A stretch of DNA of 63,995 bases, filler included, from Porpidia crustulata (lineage: Eukaryota): the NCBI GenBank assembly GCA_964255105.1. It is 7 parts of 7 records of this genome, joined end to end, with 100 filler letters (N's around TTAATTAATTAA, not from the genome) between each part and the next. Parts side by side here need not be neighbours in the genome. Positions count along the whole stretch, not along the records: positions 37,144 to 46,306 come from CAXUWE010000980.1; 6 more parts are not named here. The stretch is one strand, 5' to 3'. Under the pieces are notes generated by a model, which was not told the DNA's origin, did no database searches, and was given only the letters and a program-made list of their open reading frames with translations. The first letter of the stretch is position 1. Each line of letters begins with the position of its first letter. Below, one piece after another: positions 37,144 to 46,306 of the stretch. The translations under genes and the position numbers were made by a program.

Positions 37144-37360
37144 GGGGGGCGCTGGCCAACTAGAGGGTTTGGCCAACTAGGGGGTAGATCACGTTAGTAG
37201 GCCTTTGGGGCACTTAGTCAACAATATATTCGGCTTCCACCCTCAGAACCCTGCTCCCACCAATTTAGGGCTTTAGGTGTGTTTCCTTTTCTCGAGGGTG
37301 CTGTGGTGATTTTAGCTTGATGGGAGTGATTTATATGAGAGTGGGATTGCGCTAGATATA

Positions 37361-37894
37361 CCCCAGTATTCAGGTTCCTGCCTCGCTCTGAACTTTTTTA
37401 CTTTTTTATTTTATTTTATTTTTTTTGAATCGAAGGGTCAAAATCAGCATTTCACGACACAGTGATCAACGCTTTGTTAATTATCGTTCAAAATCACACA
37501 GATTGTAGATTACATATAGTTTCATCTGTACACGCAGTCATATGAAATTCTAGCTTCATGTTGTTGATGTAACATTGATTTCATGAATTTACAACTGTCA
37601 CGCTGCGTAACAACAAAAAATGTCGAGGTTCAATTTACAGCACGATTTTGCGACACGCTGTACGCTGTACATATCATGAAATCAATTATATATCAACAAC
37701 ATGAAGCTAGAACTTCATATAACTGCGTGTACGGATAAAACTACATGTAATCTACAATCTGTGTGATTTTGAACGATATTTAGCAAAGCGTTGATCACGG
37801 TATCGTGAAAAGCTGATTTTTGATGCCTTCGATCCAAAAAAAAAAAAAAGGCTCTGAAAATTTAGAAAGCGAGGCAGAACCCTGAATATTGGGG
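37361..37894. mobile_element. Non-autonomous foldback MITE with ~225-bp terminal inverted repeats and TA target-site duplication (Tc1/mariner-like)
   Basis: TA|CCCCAGTATTCAGG...CCTGAATATTGGGG|TA. The left arm (~37361-37586) is an imperfect reverse complement of the right arm (~37674-37894). AT-rich, no ORF. Confidence 0.8.
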
Positions 37895-38671
37895 TATTGC
37901 ACTAAAGAAATGTTTGGGTATCAACACCATTCTCGTCGATACACAACCACTATCCATATTGCAAAATCAGAGCCCATCACAAGTCTCAGAAGCCACTACC
38001 TTATCGTGCTCATTCAATTGCTCCAATTAAATCCCTTTAACATGAGATTGCTGAGCGGAAATATTATCAGGGTTTTTGAAGCTGAGGTTGAACTTGTGGG
38101 TTTTCGTTTGTTTATTGTCTAGATACTTTGAAAAGGGTTTATGACCTCGATGTCCGAGAAATGTTTTTTTTTTACTCTGCAGCTTCTCGGTGGGGCTGGA
38201 GTCAGGTTGTACGCAGATAGGCCGGTATTTACAAGTCGGTTTCTTACTTTGGGCTGTGAGAGAAAAGTTTGTATGTAAGGTGGATCTGTTTTTCTAGCCT
38301 TTGAAGAGTTCTACCTTTCGAAGAGTACTACTTGATAGACATTCATTGAGGAGGTGTTCTTGACTTGGGGTCTACTTCGTCAATGATTGTGTTGGCTGGG
38401 GGGTGTAAGATCAAGGAAAATAGCGGTGACTGTTATTCATCGTCTCCGACTATCGCTCTTCTTCTTATTCACAACCGGCCTTTGAGTCTCCAATCATCTC
38501 CAGTTTGGCAACAAATATCACCAGAAAAGGTGACTGCGATCAGAGTCAGAAATTCTCGATTCATTCCCCACTGCAGTCCACCGGAGCTTTGAGAAAGCTA
38601 TAATACTCGCCCACATCTCGAAACGCAACCGCTCAAATGGTCGTCTTCGATTCTGCAGATATTTCGCAATC

Positions 38672-40100
38672 ATGCTTCGACAAGTAGCCATACCGCATTC
38701 CTTGCGAGTAGGAGAAATCCTCACGTTGGTGTTTGGATTCGGCGTCAGCACTGTGGCCGTTTTCGCGCGGGTGTATACTAAAGCGATCATTACCAGAACT
38801 TTGAAAGTAGAGGATTGTGAGTCTGTGCGAAAGTGCAGCTAGTTTACGATCCTGGTTGCTAATTTCTGAAAGATCTCTCGGTTCTTGCTTGGGTAGTGAA
38901 GATTGTCAATTGGTTACAAGCATAAACTGATGTTTATACAGTTTTCCTTTCTTGTATATATGGTGATTGCCATCGTGATTGGTCGGAATGGTGGAAATCT
39001 TGTCCACGTCGCTTATGTAGGTCCATCTCAGGGGGCTACTGATTCGAAGAGGGCACCGGCTGATTGAAGATCTTTTTGGCTAGCTTGCTGCCGTCGAGGC
39101 AACTCTCTATTGCCCCGTAATCGTAATCGTCAAGGCTTCCATTCTGCTGCAATACATCAGCATATTCATACCGCAACGAAGCGGTCGTTTCTTCGTGGCC
39201 ACGCGCATTCTACTTTGGACCAACGTTGTCTATTACACAATCACGACCTTCGGATACATATTCGAAGTAGGCACCAGTTTATAGCGAAGACTCGATGGAA
39301 TGCTGACATATTTGTAGTGCAATCCAAGAGAAAAGCTGTGGAACCCAAACGTCCCGGGGTCCTGTATAAGTACTCATCAAATGGGGGCTGCTTCAGGGGT
39401 TCTGAACATTATATCAGACTTCACAATGTTCATACTGCCGCTGCCAACGATTCACCGGCTGCAGATGTCCACGGCGAAGAAGCTCAGGGTATACGGGTGC
39501 TTTTCTTTGGGTCTTCTGGCTTGTGTAACCAGCGTTGTGCGGCTCGTGTATAGCATCAAGCTATTGCACGTGCCCAGCCATAACCCGGAATACCTGCTGA
39601 TTATCGATATCACTGGACTTTGGAGGTACACTGATCATCCCTCCCAATTGCGTGGGGATCAACTGACACGAAGCAGTTTCGCCGAAATCGCAATCGGCAT
39701 CATCGCAGGATGCCTACCATCCCTCCCGCGCTTCTTCCAGCAATTCAGCCACAAGGAAACCACCTCATTATACATCACCAGAAGGAATACAACCACCGGC
39801 TTTACACGTAAATCGTGGCGCAAGTATCTACCCTGGTCGTCAAGGACCCGCACAAACGGTGACAGCGGACGTTTTACCCACGGAACGAGGGCTCCACGTC
39901 TAGCGACGCTCAACTTGCCCCCTTTCACAGTTCATGAGCTTGATCATGATGGCTTTGAGAGACCCGCGCCGATACGCGGGAAAAGCGCCCCGTTGGAGGA
40001 CATTGAGCTTCAGCCGGCGTCTCCTTCGTGGAGCTCGTATAGGCAGGGGAGGAGCCAGCAACCGTACGGTGGTTTTGGGGCTGTCGGGCGTGCGGCTTAG
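38672..40100 (+). CDS. Pth11-like (fungal rhodopsin-domain) integral membrane protein, no CFEM seen (multi-exon)
   Basis: ARVYTK..KVED^Y, VKASILLQYISIF, CNPREKLWNP..PGSC, NIISDFTMFILPLPTIHRLQM..KK, SVVRL and AEIAIGIIAGCLP. Confidence 0.82.
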
Positions 40101-41292
40101 TAGGGTTTTGTATTGACACTTTGAGGGTTCTTGGGGGCGTTAGGTGACGTTAGGGCGATGTCCGTCCTTTGTTTTTTGCTATAGAGTTGTGTTTTTTACT
40201 ATCTGTGAAGTTCGAAATCCGCCTATCCTGCGTTGAGAATCTTTTAGAGGGGCAAAAGAGCTGTTTGATGTTAAGTATATCTGTCAATCCCGATAAATTG
40301 GCTTGCGAGCTAACATCCCGAGATCAAGTCAATAGTTTAGCATCAATGCCGTTTGTAAAATATTCACTCAGCCTGCGACAAGAAGTCTATTCACACTTCT
40401 GATTCCTAGGTCCTGTAGCTTCTGGAACTTAAAACAAATTAGGGGCTCCGGTCATCAATATCCATGTGAAATCTCGATACATGTAAGAAAAAAGATGATT
40501 TCAATGAAGTTCTGGGCTTTCCCTTTCTACTGCGAATAGCAACGAAGTAATCACTTGGAAGTTGTGGTGTAGCGTCGCCAGTGGCTACTTCAACATTGGT
40601 CAAGATATGGTGGTTTCCCTCCTTCTCAACCCAATGACTTGCATGCCCACTGGCGATTGCGGGACACCATATCGGATTTCTCGGCATCCACGAAGCTCCT
40701 TAGCTTTCTGATAGATTCCACACCAATCATAACCCAACAGACCTCGGACTTCACCTTTCATAAGGTTGTGTTTTCCTTGAAATGCAGTGACGCTTGAAAT
40801 AGATCCTCTTAGGATTGTACATCTTCTCGTTGTCTTGCTTGAGAAAATTATACGGCTTCCAATTCCATGCCGTAGAGTGTTAGAGTGTCAACATTACGTT
40901 TCTTTGTTCGCTAGACCATGGAATTTGCTCCCCATGGTTTCCTGAGTCCAGAGTTGTCCAATGCTGCCAGCGGAACGGAAGAATCAGGAGGATCAGAACC
41001 AGATGATGATGCCAGGTTCGATGGGCTCATCAAAACATCTCATGGCTAGTCACGGTACTAAGAGATTTCGAAGTATTAGAACCGATTCTTATGGTAAAAG
41101 TACAATAAGGTGGAGTATTGTATTTCAACATGTAGGTACAGTAGGCTTGTCGTTGAGTAGGCCACTATGCCCGAAGTAGGTAGAGTTTCTACGTGAGCTA
41201 GACTAGCGTTTCCGCTAAGGACAAATAATACAATACAGTTGACCATCTTCCACTCACGTTCTTTGCACGCATCAACATCACCTCATTACATC

Positions 41293-43618
41293 ATGGCCTG
41301 GCGTAATCAGGGCATCACCGGCTCGAACAACATTCCTCTTGGATCTCGTCGAAGATTTGGAGGTGGTGAATCAACCCCGCCTGTTGAGGAGGGAGGGTAC
41401 AACCCGACCCAGCCGCAAAACGGATTTTCCGATGTGGGCTACAAGCGAGGACGTAGTCCAGAGCGACGTAGGTCGAACACGTTCTCTCTTGAGAGGACTT
41501 CTACTAACGTAGATCCAGCTGAGCCTGTAGAGGCTGGCGAGAGACGACGCAAGAAGCGTAACCGATGGGGAGATGCTGCAGAGAACAAGGCCGCTGGCTT
41601 GATGGGCTTGCCTACCATGATCAAAGCAAATATGACAAATGAGCAACTTGAAGCTTACACTCTGCACTTGCGTATCCAAGAAATTAGTGAAAAGCTAAGA
41701 ATCAACGACGTTGTGCCAGCAGATGGTGACAGGTAAGCCAGTCCAGGCTGTCCTCTCCGAATCTATAATCTAACTGTCTTGAATGGCTTAGGTCTCCGTC
41801 CCCTCCGCCGCAATATGACAATTTTGGTCGTCGTGTAAACACCCGAGAATATCGCTATCGTAAACGTCTTGAGGATGAACGCCACAAGCAGATTGAAAAA
41901 GCTATGAAGATAATCCCTAATTATCACCCACCGTCTGATTACAGACGCCCAACTAAGACACAGGAGAAGGTCTATGTGCCAGTCAATGATTATCCAGAAA
42001 TTAACTTCAGTACGATAACTAACCCTCTAAGTCCTAACCTTCTCCTTTTGTCATTTTTACATTTAGTGATGCATGCGGCATTCCTCGGACGATGTAGCAT
42101 ATTGTCGTCACTAACCCCAATACTACACAAACACGCTGCTTGAATTATTGATCAACAAAGACTAACACTTAGCTTGCGTTTTCGTACTAAAGTTGGACTT
42201 CTCATCGGACCTCGAGGCAATACATTGAAGAAGATGGAAACCGAATCACTCGCAAAGATTGCTATTCGTGGAAAAGGATCCGTCAAAGAGGGAAAGGGTC
42301 GATCTGACGCAGCTCATACCAGCAACCAAGAAGAAGATTTACATTGCTTGATTATGGCAGATACCGAAGAGAAAGTTAACAAAGCCAAGAAGCTTATTCA
42401 TAATGTCATCGAGACGGTGAGTTTGACTTCATCTCTCCGTGTTTAATACGTTATCTAATGTCATCATTTCTAGGCTGCCTCCATCCCCGAGGGACAGAAT
42501 GAGCTTAAACGCAATCAACTTCGTGAGCTTGCAGCTCTCAACGGTACACTCCGTGACGACGAGAATCAAGCGTGCCAGAACTGTACGTATCTTCAAATAT
42601 TCCGGCATCCCCTGCTTTCCCCTTACAGGTCTACTAATATTAATTCAGGCGGTCAAATTGGTCACCGCAAATATGACTGCCCCGAGCAACGTAACTTTAC
42701 TGCTAACATCATCTGTCGAGTTTGTGGAAACGCTGGGCATATGGCTAGAGATTGTCCGGACAGACAGCGCGGAGCAAATTGGCGCAACGATGCTCCGGGT
42801 GCCGCTGTGCCAGGGGCTCGCCCTGCTGGACGTATCGGTGGTGGGGATGCTGTCGATCGCGAATACGAGGTATGTTTTGATCATTGTCTCGCATACTATA
42901 TCTCCTAATATCATCACAGCAACTCATGCAAGAGCTTTCTGGCAATGCACCTGCTGCAAACGGCGAAGCGCCTCAACGTATCGAAGCCGGGCCTGGTGGT
43001 TACGAGAATGGCGGCGGTGATGGCTACGGCGAAGGTGATCGTGATCTGAAGCCATGGCAACGTGGTCCAACTGGTGCAGCTGCCCCTTGGCAACGTAGTG
43101 GAGGAGATCGTCAGGATGACTTCCAAGGCCGTGATGGAGGTTCAGCGCCACCATGGGCCGCTGGCGGTGCTGGACGCGGCGGAGATGGTCAAGCCGGTTA
43201 TGGACAACAAGGCGGGTACGGAGCTCCTCCATCTGGTCCACCTGGTGGAGCTGCACCTTGGCAGCGACAACAAGATGCCCCTCCACCCCCTCCTGGTGGC
43301 CAGCAAGACTACGGCTACGGAGGATACCCAGGTGGTGGTTACGGGGTATCTGGCAGCGGCTATCCTCCTGCCCCAAGTATGGGGGCCCCTCCTGGCCTTG
43401 GCGGTGGTGCTGGTGGACTTGGAGCTCCACCAGGCTTGGGCGCTCTCTTTCAATCATATGGCGGCAACGGGTCTGCTCCCCCTCCGCCTCCGCCTGGTGA
43501 CGCACCGCCCCCTCCAGTAAGTCTAGCCGCTCCCTTGTCTACACATTCATGCATTTTATACTAACCTCTGTAGCCGCCGAGCGATCAGCCCCCCCCACCT
43601 CCACCACCTGGTGCATAA
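41293..43618 (+). CDS. MSL5: Branchpoint-bridging protein / splicing factor 1 (BBP/SF1), 8 exons
   Basis: [26 protein letters not shown]2 NF^[27 protein letters not shown], two CCHC zinc knuckles and a Pro/Gly-rich tail. Introns approximately 41468-41518, 41733-41791, 42010-42192, 42417-42473, 42583-42648, 42870-42919 and 43518-43573. Confidence 0.95.
42010..42192 (+). promoter_or_regulatory. Putative regulatory intron of BBP/SF1 with multiple branch-point motifs, an alternative 3' splice site and a hairpin
   Basis: 183 nt, versus about 50-66 nt for the other introns. ACTAAC x3, CCTAAC and TACTAA. Internal poly-Y+TAG at 42066. Stem 42063-42114. Confidence 0.55.
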
Positions 43619-44820
43619 ATCAAGCTCCTTATTCAAGAGTAGCATGATCGGCCTGGTAGTTGTTATCGAACGAGCATTCGTCAACGATGAGGGAGAATGG
43701 TTTGCGAGGATGTCTGGAGGCTTTTCGCTATCTCGGGGAAGGATTCTGACGTTTCGTTGACAAACTGTCCCGGCGAATGTTGTCCATACAGTTCCCTTCA
43801 GTGGTAATTCACGTTGCTGCGTACTAAAATAGAACGGACAGTCTTGCTTTGCAAATCCTTTATTCCGTGTCTTGTCACATGCGTGATGCTGAGCTGCCAC
43901 ACTTCAAACCAATGGTTGAAGAAGCCGTGTCGGCTTGTTAAGATCCGGGACGTTAAAGCAAGATATGAGGGGAACAGACCACGGCATGGCGCTGAAGGTG
44001 GACACCCCCACTGATCCTTTGGTAGTATCTCAATCTCAGGGGAATCGATAGCGCAAGATGTTTAAGCATGTTTCTCACCCCACCGAGATCTAAGTCATTT
44101 TGAATGATTGACGCCTCGGGATAGGAGCGGGTAAAGCAGCTGGTGCTTCAAGTCGAGTCTCAGGGACATCGGACGACATCTGAAACGACCAGTTGAAGTA
44201 GTTTCCTCGCTTAACACGAGGTTTGACTGGGGTTTGCCCTAAATCCTGCTTACATAACGGTACCTCGGTCGTTGTGCAACCTCGAGAGACACGGGACCTT
44301 CCCCAACCCAAAACTACTCCGACGATCAATTGGAAATAGTTCATTGATTTGAGACATCAGTGGCATTCCTCTTCTAGTCTTTGATAGCTGCCATACTATC
44401 ATCGTATTACTTGGCTCAGGAGACGAAAGGGTTACGATGGCCATGAGGTTTCGTTTCAAAGCAACGACTAAGCGCGCCAGAAGTACCCAATCTGGAAATG
44501 AAGCACCGAAGCCGTCCTATCAACTTTCTAACTACCTCAACTCCAAATCTCCGTTGATGCCGTTCTGCCTACGTTCTCCACCGACTATCATTTCAACGAC
44601 TACTCCTGCACCTCACTTAGGAATGTGGCTGTTTCTGCCATGGACTTGGACAAAACCCATTGGAATCCCCTCATCCTGATTTCTTTCTCTTCTCTTACTT
44701 AACCCTTGCGAAAGCTCCTCCTTTGGCTCTGGTAGTCCGTCTGTTTTTTCTGTTCTTGTACTACTCAATACTGCTGTGTCAGTACCACACTCTTTTCTCA
44801 ATCAACCACATTCGTTCATC

Positions 44821-46306
44821 ATGTTCTCGAGGCTTCTCGCTGCTTTGGTCGGAGCATCAAGCTTGGGCAATGCCCTTGCTGCTGGTGTTGCCTGGGGTGG
44901 GGTCAACATCGCAGGGTACGACTTTGGTTGTGATACAAGTGTAAATCTTTGGAGCCATGAAGATCTGCCGCTAAAATGCTGACATCAATGTTCAGGGTCA
45001 CTGCGTGCTGGGAAGCATAGACCACCCCCTTGATGGCCCACGACAAATGAAACATTTCGTCGACGAAAACAAGCTCAACGCGTTCCGACTTAATGTTGGA
45101 TGGCAATTCCTGGTCAACAATCAGCTGGGAGGAACCCTTGATGCCGCCAATCTTGCCGAATATGATAAACTTGTCCAAGGTTGCTTGACGACTGGCGCCT
45201 ACTGTATAATTGATATTCACAATTACGCCCGCTGGAACGGGCAAATAATCGGTCAAGGAGGCCCAACAGATGATCAATTCGCAAGCCTGTGGAGCCAATT
45301 AGCTACCAAGTATGTAAAGGAAAGCAATATCGTCATGGGATTAATGAACGAACCCCACGATAGTATGTTCAATGTCGATCTCTAATTTCAGCATATATTG
45401 ACTTGTTGCAGTGCCTGATATGGACCGATGGGCAACCTCAGTTCAGGCCGCTGTCACTGCTATCCGCAAGGCTGGAGCAACTACTCAACATATCCTTCTA
45501 CCCGGTAAATCAACCTGCAACTTTGACGGATTTACCACCCTCAACACTAATTTATTGTAGGAAACGGTTACACCAGTGCAGCGAGTTTCGCTACTGGCTC
45601 TGGACCTGCTCTTTCGAAAGTGACCAACCTTGACGGCTCGACCACCAATCTAATTTTTGACGTTCATCAATATTTTGATGAAGATTTCTCCGGCACTCAC
45701 CCCAATTGTGTTACCAATCAGATTGATAAGGCTTTCTCTCCTCTTGCCGACTGGCTTCGTACGAATAAACGCCAGGCCCTTCTCTCTGAAACTGGAGGTG
45801 GTAGCAAGGACCCTTCGTGCTTGACCAGTAGGTGCTCGATATTGTACTTTCTCGTGCAGTATTCTGACATACATATCAGACGTTTGCGAGGCTCTTGATT
45901 TTCTCAACAAGAATTCCGACGTCTATCTCGGCTACTTGGGTTGGGCCGCCGGTGCCTTTTCACCTGATACCTATGTTCTATCGTTGACCCCCAAAACCTT
46001 TATCATCGGCGACCACCAATATCATGACCAACCGCTCTTGACACAATGTTTTGCTGCCAAATTCGCCGGTGGAAGCGGCACTAGCCCAGCACCAGCTCCT
46101 GGCCCAGCTCCTGGCCCAGCCAGCCCAGCTCCTAGTCCAGCTCCTCCCGGCCCAGCTCCAAGTCCAGCTCCTCCCGGCCCAGCTCCCAGTCCACCTCCTG
46201 GTCCAGCTCCTCCAGTATCGTCAGCCCCGGCTTCTTCTGCTGCACCTGAATCATCTAGCCCTGCACCATCTGCCTCAGCATCCGCACCTGCACCCTCCTC
46301 TGACTC
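44821..46306 (+). CDS. Secreted GH5 endo-beta-1,4-glucanase (Cel5A/EGII-like) with Pro/Ala/Ser linker; truncated at the contig end
   Basis: Signal peptide, GVNIAGYDFGC, IIDIHNYARWNG, catalytic MNEPH and LSETGG, DVHQYFD and GWAAGAF. Confidence 0.92.
46085..46215 (+). repeat. Coding minisatellite (CCAGCTCCT-based) encoding PAPGPAP/PAPSPAPPG linker
   Basis: Visible imperfect tandem repeats in the GH5 C-terminal linker. Confidence 0.8.

Follow-up and report, generated by a model that had tools for sequence, protein, structure and literature searches.

A CTAAC-rich, weakly bounded intron conserved in the BBP/SF1 gene of filamentous ascomycetes and kept in otherwise spliced transcripts: a candidate for negative feedback

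Autoregulation by unproductive splicing is known for SR proteins, hnRNPs, PTBP1, RBM39 and the Sm protein B/B', and the STAR-family protein Quaking regulates itself through ACUAA elements. OGT is a further case of a decoy or detained intron. The branchpoint-bridging protein (BBP/SF1) binds UACUAAC-type branch sites with its KH-QUA2 region, jointly with U2AF65/Mud2 on the adjacent pyrimidine tract. Here we describe the third intron (intron 3) of the BBP/SF1 gene in a stretch of 63,995 nucleotides (nt) from Porpidia crustulata (assembly GCA_964255105.1), hereafter the window. Positions count along the whole stretch, and those from 37,144 to 46,306, which include the gene, come from CAXUWE010000980.1. 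Intron 3 is long, carries several copies of the branch-site word CTAAC between two weak splice sites, and is kept in transcripts of relatives from which other introns have been removed. It is a real and strongly selected feature, very probably with a regulatory role, and it is very likely functional and selectively retained. We read it as an ancient, selected regulatory intron that is hard to splice and often retained, whose likeliest working is negative feedback by BBP. To this reading as a whole we give a probability of about 0.5.

In Neurospora and Aspergillus, a long intron is retained in srp2, the orthologue of SRSF5 (PMC4379411). The present locus resembles srp2 and other autoregulated splicing factors in several respects: it is a splicing-factor gene, its alternative transcript has a premature stop, and the regulated part is a conserved region with an intron that is unusually long for a fungus. 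It differs from srp2 in that the BBP intron sequence is conserved across classes, whereas the retained srp2 intron, according to its authors, is not notably conserved in sequence among Aspergillus species (PMC4379411), and in that for BBP we infer the feedback. It differs from autoregulated splicing factors in general in that BBP is a general branch-site reader and the elements are copies of core splice signals placed at both splice sites. Yeast ribosomal proteins (RPL22, RPL7B and RPL30) repress the splicing of their own introns (PMC4838235, PMC12311795). In BBP, too, the protein would block the splicing of its own pre-mRNA, and an intron structure lies near a non-consensus signal. The ribosomal proteins recognize a structure mimicking their ribosomal RNA site, while the presumed sites of BBP are linear copies of its normal substrate motif.

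Decoy exons have been described in SF3B1 intron 4 (PMC6097662), and detained introns as a general class (PMC4281565). With these the BBP gene shares one intron left in otherwise spliced transcripts, and internal elements resembling splice sites that are proposed to engage the machinery unproductively. Unlike the SF3B1 decoy exons, the BBP decoy is a branch-site array with its pyrimidine tract, set only a few bases away from the donor of a 183-nt intron in an intron-defined fungal gene. SF1 and QKI compete for ACUAA branch sites (PMC13004596), and BBP shares with Quaking both the KH-QUA2 type of RNA recognition and the ACUAA(C) word. In the open full-text literature, with subscription journals and supplements lying outside the search, we found no account of SF1/BBP self-regulation, of the setting of its level or of a CTAAC-rich intron. 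If the reading given above is true, intron 3 would be the first described self-regulation of SF1/BBP, and a clean natural case of regulation by decoy core splice signals.

The coding region was modelled as eight exons and translated to a protein of 602 amino acids (aa). Pfam searches with single exons placed SF1-HH (PF16275) on exon 2 (E 1e-12) and exon 3 (E 1e-23), KH-I_KHDC4-BBP (PF22675) on exon 4 (E 1.5e-19, profile positions 10-76 of 76) and zf-CCHC (PF00098) on exon 6 (E 5.6e-11), the zinc knuckle being located after KH-QUA2. Annotated branchpoint-bridging proteins of many Pezizomycotina match exon 4 at 97-100%, with lichen-forming Lecanoromycetes on top at 100%. The Pfam domains and this orthology identify the gene as BBP/SF1, and since the KH profile enters exon 4 at position 10 of 76, the KH domain is split by intron 3. 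The seven introns measure 45, 59, 183, 57, 66, 50 and 57 nt, so that intron 3 is about three times longer than the others (45-66 nt). On the gene, the split KH domain and the relative length of intron 3 the original prediction, an earlier note made from the window sequence, was right, and it had also placed the ends of the intron, the motifs, the TAG, the TGA and the second AG correctly. Intron 1 is backed by orthologue N-termini that are without 15 extra residues. Fully spliced transcripts of relatives are present in the protein database (P0115, with 586 aa on a 1932-nt contig, and the similar P0120). Both read EINF-I-GLL across the junction, confirming that productive splicing uses the distal AG. 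In run X1, two DNA-like contigs lay over the BBP gene and showed no joints. The features of the gene and of intron 3 are as follows.

41293-43618, + strand: BBP/SF1 coding region; exons at 41293-41467, 41513-41732, 41792-42009, 42193-42416, 42474-42582, 42649-42869, 42920-43516 and 43574-43618
42010-42192, + strand: intron 3, 183 nt, phase 1, between NF and I-GLL of the KH domain
42010-42015, + strand: donor GTACGA, with A at +6, weak
42016-42038, + strand: 5' cluster of branch-site-like motifs, from TAACTAAC (42016-42023) to CCTAAC (42033-42038), beginning 10 nt past the donor
42039-42063, + strand: pyrimidine tract after the 5' cluster, with which it resembles a 3' splice site module
42064-42066, + strand: TAG, the 'poison acceptor' of the original prediction, not conserved
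42073-42100, + strand: core of a conserved hairpin, 42073-42082 pairing with 42091-42100
42109-42115, + strand: CACTAAC, mid-intron motif at the 3' foot of the hairpin
42141-42143, + strand: TGA, the earliest in-frame stop upon retention
42148-42154, + strand: TTGATCA, conserved, between the mid-intron motif and the branch site
42160-42166, + strand: GACTAAC, the likely branch site judging from its position, with branch A at 42165, 27 nt from the acceptor
42170-42172, + strand: proximal TAG, conserved, 7 nt past branch A; its use adds 20 nt and shifts the frame
42185-42192, + strand: terminal TACTAA (42185-42190) over the acceptor AAG (42190-42192), the weak productive acceptor

Intron 3 of the window holds four CTAAC in addition to the terminal TACTAA. 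Across 20,000 dinucleotide shuffles of the intron itself, the mean expectation was 0.47 CTAAC, and 12 shuffles reached four (P ~6e-4). Over the whole window the word is scarcer than expected, with 42 occurrences against 88.9 by dinucleotide shuffles (both strands), and this depletion fits a general avoidance of the branch-site word outside introns. At a density of at least three CTAAC per 200 nt on one strand, intron 3 is the sole site in the 64-kb window.

For comparison, relatives were taken as the best 80 of 400 confirmed loci from metagenome contigs, which had been fetched with the exon-4 peptide. Exons 3 and 4 are both spanned in 77 of the 80 loci; with the window there were 78 rows and 62 distinct versions of the junction (61 from metagenomes and the window). 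Introns were measured by exon-anchored extraction. An intron is present at the exon 3/4 junction in 61 of the 62 distinct versions, with a median length of 185 nt and a mean of 4.56 CTAAC (2.47 per 100 nt). In the control introns 2, 4 and 5 (44, 46 and 24 distinct GT..AG sequences) the median length is 50-55 nt, with 0.38-0.52 CTAAC each and 0.7-0.95 per 100 nt. All but one of the 61 introns are 137-264 nt long and contain 2-6 CTAAC each. The remaining one, in L077, is an ordinary intron of 97 nt with a GTAAGT donor and no CTAAC. The single version with no intron at the junction, L069, is 99% identical in exons 3-4 to Pezizomycetes (Wilcoxina, Tricharina). Throughout 288 kb of distinct related loci, all 83 clusters of at least three CTAAC in 200 nt were found in or beside the BBP gene. 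Intron 3 contained 47 of them, and another 31 were the intron 3 array counted with an exon-3 CTAAC. Four lay just upstream of the ATG (L001, L004, L038 and L040) and one downstream of the coding region (L077).

The sequence of intron 3 is also conserved beyond its motifs. Among 53 locus pairs that are 85-90% identical in exon 4, identity was 74% in intron 3, compared with 55-56% in introns 2 and 4, which is about the alignment floor, and 64% at exon-4 third codon positions. Intron 3 was more identical than both neighbouring introns in 51 of the 53 pairs, indicating that it is under purifying selection. We assigned the array loci to their nearest proteins in a panel of named proteins, by a rough procedure that sums tblastn scores. 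The nearest proteins were from Lecanoromycetes (Pleopsidium 93%), Leotiomycetes (Mollisia 95% and Botrytis 88%, over partial lengths), Dothideomycetes (Alternaria 93-97%, Pyrenophora 92%), Eurotiomycetes (Penicillium 91%) and Sordariomycetes (Coniochaeta 85%; Neurospora 89%, partial). By this assignment the CTAAC-array design is common to five classes of Pezizomycotina. Conservation of the array in relatives, put forward as a check on the original prediction, is thus found.

The array can be followed in translated sequences as well. Among the 120 best protein matches to exon 4 there are 68 open reading frames (ORFs) that start inside the intron; 53 of these contain LT.S and 52 end in T[KE]V, and LT.S ... 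T[KE]V is the translation of CTAACNNNAGC ... ACTAAAG. From the other side, 119 ORF clusters run from exon 3 into the intron, of which 116 read [TAS]N[PLS], 95 read NPL[TS] and 59 include a third motif.

The arrangement of these motifs varied little among the 61 introns. The donor is GTATGA in 39, GTACGA in 13 and another GTAYGN in 8. Its position +6 is occupied by A in 52 of the 61 (G in 6, C in 2, T in 1), whereas T is found there in 85 of the 114 other introns of the BBP gene. The sole consensus GTAAGT donor, in the 97-nt intron of L077, belongs to the sole intron without CTAAC. Directly behind the donor stands the 5' array, in which a CTAAC starts at +9/+10 in 56 of the 61 introns and at +17 to +19 in 43, with another at +20 to +45 in 37. 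At least one CTAAC falls within the first 45 nt in 60 of the 61, and at least two in 54. These copies are mostly imperfect branch sites, since only 34 of the 139 motifs of the 5' array read ACTAAC and 105 differ. The 25 nt past the cluster have a median pyrimidine content of 82%, while whole introns reach 62%. Beside the donor, the array and the pyrimidine tract behind it thus make up a decoy 3' splice site module. At 10-45 nt from the donor, the array is likely too close to serve as a branch site, and splicing from this module presumably cannot be completed over so short a distance.

The 3' half is equally regular. A mid-intron CTAAC is present in 57 of the 61 introns, and of the 64 motifs in this class 35 read CACTAAC. 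At the presumed working site, all 60 motifs read ACTAAC, and in 57 of the 61 introns a distance of 20-29 nt separates the branch A from the 3' end. An AG follows the branch A by exactly 7 nt in 46 introns and by 6 nt in 9, together 55 of the 61. The acceptor at the end of the intron is AAG in 46, CAG in 15 and TAG in none. AAG occurs in only 5 of the 114 other introns of the gene family, and the weakness that the original prediction attributed to the productive acceptor is borne out. In 45 of the 61 introns an ACTAA overlaps the acceptor, CTAA being followed by AG at the very end. Because the donor and the acceptor are both conserved in a poor form, both splice sites are held weak by selection.

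The AG close to the branch A, at 42171-42172 in the window, is the extra AG that is conserved; the original prediction had raised it only in passing, stating correctly that its use would shift the frame. Divided by three, the spacing between the proximal and distal AG leaves remainders of 1, 2 and 0 in 25, 18 and 16 introns, and multiples of three are not avoided (16 of 59). A frameshift is not the whole purpose of the proximal AG. It may be a second, unproductive acceptor that comes into use once the distal AG has been masked. In intron 1 the AG in use seems to lie 5 nt past the branch A, so such a short distance is probably usable in intron 3.

Between the mid-intron motif and the branch site, TTGA occurs in 48 of the 61 introns and TGATC in 28, within -90 to -20 of the 3' end, and an aligned block is visible. 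The TTGATCA-like block is palindromic and kept across classes, and it does not form an in-frame stop codon in the window. In six Xylariales models (P0289, P0308, P0318, P0337, P0343 and P0348; five of them named, the sixth sharing their tail) EINF is followed by SEIANPLT. This reading implies a GTGAGA donor, not GTATGA, followed by the same CTAAC array.

Evidence for retention came from contigs that resemble complementary DNA (cDNA), compared by blastn. Four such contigs (L016, L017, L028 and L050) have lost their other introns and keep intron 3. L016, which matches the genomic locus L023 at 99.6% identity, is without exactly the 54-nt and 46-nt GT..AG introns 1 and 2, and it keeps the 193-nt intron 3 with 2 mismatches to L023. 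Compared with L071 (87% identical), L028 has five segments gone that bear intron signals in the relative, and keeps an intron 3 of 207 nt; compared with L080 (86% identical), L050 has four such segments gone and keeps an intron 3 of 189 nt. In L017, intron 3 (245 nt) is the sole intron. The pair L016 and L023 is the only near-same-species proof of retention, and it is firm. Among the 80 loci there was no partly removed intron 3 and no fully spliced locus. Whether the other introns were spliced or lost, intron 3 persists where they are absent. L016 (1068 nt) is circularly permuted, with the end of exon 4 jumping to exon 1, and its splice junctions are exact.

Retention breaks the reading frame in all 61 introns, by an in-frame stop in 60 and by a frameshift in one. 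In the window the frame closes at the TGA at 42141-42143, as originally predicted. The 119 ORF clusters described above, which enter the intron from exon 3, encode the SF1-HH domain only, and 17 of them have a complete contiguous N-terminus on contigs shorter than 3 kb. At least 22 named public gene models (among P0245-P0348) are truncated inside intron 3, at 213-294 aa with SF1-HH only; they include Aspergillus, Penicillium, several Xylariales and others. Aberrant junctions across intron 3 are seen in P0054, P0099, P0111, P0114 and P0118.

The conserved CTAAC load, the weak splice sites, the purifying selection and the retained transcripts are together as expected of a regulatory, probably self-regulatory, intron. 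From this arrangement we infer the binding factor, the direction of its effect and the fate of the retained form. Right behind the weak donor stands the array of mostly second-rate CTAAC sites with its pyrimidine tract. One further site stands at the foot of the hairpin, one perfect ACTAAC is the working branch site, and one ACTAA sits atop the acceptor. When BBP is scarce, the perfect ACTAAC would win and productive messenger RNA would be made. When BBP, with U2AF65/Mud2, is in excess, the extra weak sites would be filled as well. The donor would then be tied up in a dead-end early complex and the acceptor masked. Intron 3 would be retained, the frame broken before KH-QUA2, and the transcript either degraded or kept inside the nucleus. 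When yeast cells lose BBP or Mud2, unspliced RNA escapes into the cytoplasm and becomes subject to nonsense-mediated decay (NMD) (PMC2377449). By that result a BBP-coated transcript should stay nuclear, and nuclear holding would explain why the retained form is abundant enough for assembly. Judged by the motif, it is about an even proposition that BBP itself is the sensor and acts as a brake. The fullest form of the proposal is offered tentatively, at slightly less than even odds. Filamentous ascomycetes would tune BBP by a sensor made of its own substrate motif, with graded weak sites, a perfect site and an acceptor-masking site. Excess BBP (with U2AF65/Mud2) would lead to dead-end complexes and nuclear detention, and the device would trace back to the ancestor shared by Lecanoro-, Leotio-, Dothideo-, Eurotio- and Sordariomycetes.

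Several points weigh against negative feedback by BBP. It is the identity of the motif that singles out BBP as the sensor, and many extra branch-site motifs could equally raise the local concentration of BBP and aid splicing when the protein is scarce. The 61 introns share descent, and their counts overstate the number of independent events. L017, L028 and L050 were called cDNA-like from their missing introns, not from the record label. The lineages of P0026, P0062, P0066 and P0086, on long contigs, are truly without downstream introns, so missing introns alone are no proof of cDNA. An abundant retained form is unlike a target of fast NMD. Finally, the proximal AG does not support a strict role as 'poison by frameshift', because its spacing to the distal AG is a multiple of three in the 16 introns counted above.

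The same weak sites could also be read by the splicing machinery at large. Intron 3 would then sense general spliceosome capacity, being the first to fail when U1 or U2 small nuclear ribonucleoprotein (snRNP) or U2AF is limiting or overloaded, and BBP output would track the global splicing load. The conserved weakness of donor and acceptor and the selectivity of retention agree with this. The decoy branch sites also fit the branch-pairing region of U2 small nuclear RNA, and the data do not separate decoys bound by BBP from decoys bound by U2. However, the array was found only in the BBP gene within the 352 kb examined, which points to the motif's own reader, and the 105 sites of the 5' array that are not ACTAAC are poorer for pairing with U2. 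We therefore regard a sensor of general capacity as unlikely.

A different role for the motifs is suggested by the structure in the middle of the intron. In an alignment of 20 Lecanoro- and Leotiomycete-like sequences, 92% of the cells of the hairpin are paired, against 19-57% with slid partners. Compensatory changes occur in 5 of 8 pairs, and none of 500 shuffles reached the observed covariation score. Kinship may inflate the shuffle test, so the control with slid partners is the safer evidence for the hairpin. The motifs might be helpers rather than brakes, recruiting BBP to a long intron, or the hairpin might be functional cargo with a separate job. The covarying hairpin and the conserved TTGATCA block are in favour, and zipper-type stems reportedly aid the splicing of yeast introns (PMC12311795). 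A helper gives no account of conserved weak sites, of motifs at both donor and acceptor or of selective retention. As to cargo, a search of 41900-42300 against Rfam with E up to 10 returned a single weak, unrelated match, inside exon 4. In the whole window nothing reached the gathering threshold, and no described intron-hosted RNA family (snoRNA-like) was found. The intron also has no consistent partner that pairs with the donor. We judge the helper and cargo versions improbable.

Two other structural candidates were dropped. The first was a long-range helix sequestering the donor. With RNAduplex, the first 11 nt were paired with the rest of the intron in the 60 introns that measure 100 nt or more and have a defined branch-site CTAAC. 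Counted from the branch site, the partners ranged widely, from -130 to +29, and pairing of the donor region with GATCATA was confined to a Leotiomycete subset. The second was a twin intron (stwintron): no internal GT..AG pair is conserved, and the outer donor, branch site and acceptor are intact. The candidate GT on the 5' side of the hairpin is missing in L009 and L018.

The switch proposed in the original prediction works by branch-point choice. The level of BBP would select CCTAAC and the TAG at 42064-42066, a 57-nt mini-intron would be removed, and a premature stop and NMD would follow. In the window the elements of such an intron are present: CCTAAC, a 25-nt pyrimidine tract and TAG. The product would stop at the TGA at 42141, as was stated, and all relatives have some AG downstream of the 5' array. 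Yet the poison acceptor is not conserved. At the aligned site, the nearest relatives read TCTGGTG, TTTGGTG or TTTGATG, L001, L002 and L007 have no AG there, and over the sample the earliest AG varies from 10 to 109 nt downstream of the 5' cluster. The branch A would be just 28 nt from the donor. The alternative form seen in relatives is retention of the whole intron, which all four cDNA-like contigs keep entire, and none of the 80 loci shows partial removal. This version is thus very improbable. What stands of the original interpretation is the gene, the motif load, the weak acceptor and the idea of self-sensing, with BBP as the proposed agent; the poison acceptor and branch-point choice do not.

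The truncated products could instead be the purpose of retention. The retained form would be translated into a short protein of ~204 residues and a tail, which keeps the N-terminal U2AF65-binding motif and SF1-HH, loses KH-QUA2 and the zinc knuckles, and competes with full-length BBP for its partner. The intron is placed exactly between SF1-HH and KH, retained transcripts are common enough to be assembled, and the 119 ORF clusters and at least 22 named models are truncated in this way. However, conservation of the intron affects all three codon positions and tracks the RNA motifs, not the peptide. The tails diverge in sequence and length past ~10 residues, and the ORF calls on contigs are mechanical. 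A purposeful short protein is hence also very unlikely. Chance or neutral drift in a long intron, which has in its favour that AT-rich introns contain CTAAC-like words, is in our view refuted by the conservation across classes, and the CTAAC excess, the control introns, the fixed layout, the identity excess and the unique clustering all speak against it.

With a conserved cis-element in its own gene, the setting of the SF1/BBP level is directly testable in Neurospora or Aspergillus, and the graded quality of the sites suits study of how early splicing complexes commit or stall. The intron could be a portable BBP-responsive switch in fungal engineering. On the practical side, many public models of this essential gene end or err at intron 3, which is an annotation trap.

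Some CTAAC groups lie outside intron 3. In L077 (3160-3290), two similar units of GGGACTAACA..GGCT(G/A)ACTTGCTAG stand ~100 nt apart and appear to lie downstream of the BBP coding region, as estimated from partial alignments. They could be a regulatory element that has been displaced, or else the ends of introns in a neighbouring gene. In L001 (1508-1604) and L038 (1477-1594), three CTAAC occur within ~100 nt just 5' of the start codon of BBP. The second and third of those in L001 overlap (CTAACTAAC), and behind them a CACAG stands two bases ahead of the ATG, so that the stretch resembles the 3' end of an intron in the 5' untranslated region. The BBP gene of the window has no CTAAC in the 90 nt ahead of its ATG. 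The only other close pair in the window is on the minus strand at 40139-40153 (CCCTAACGTCACCTAACGCC), where two CTAAC are spaced by 10 nt, ~1.1 kb upstream of the start of BBP.

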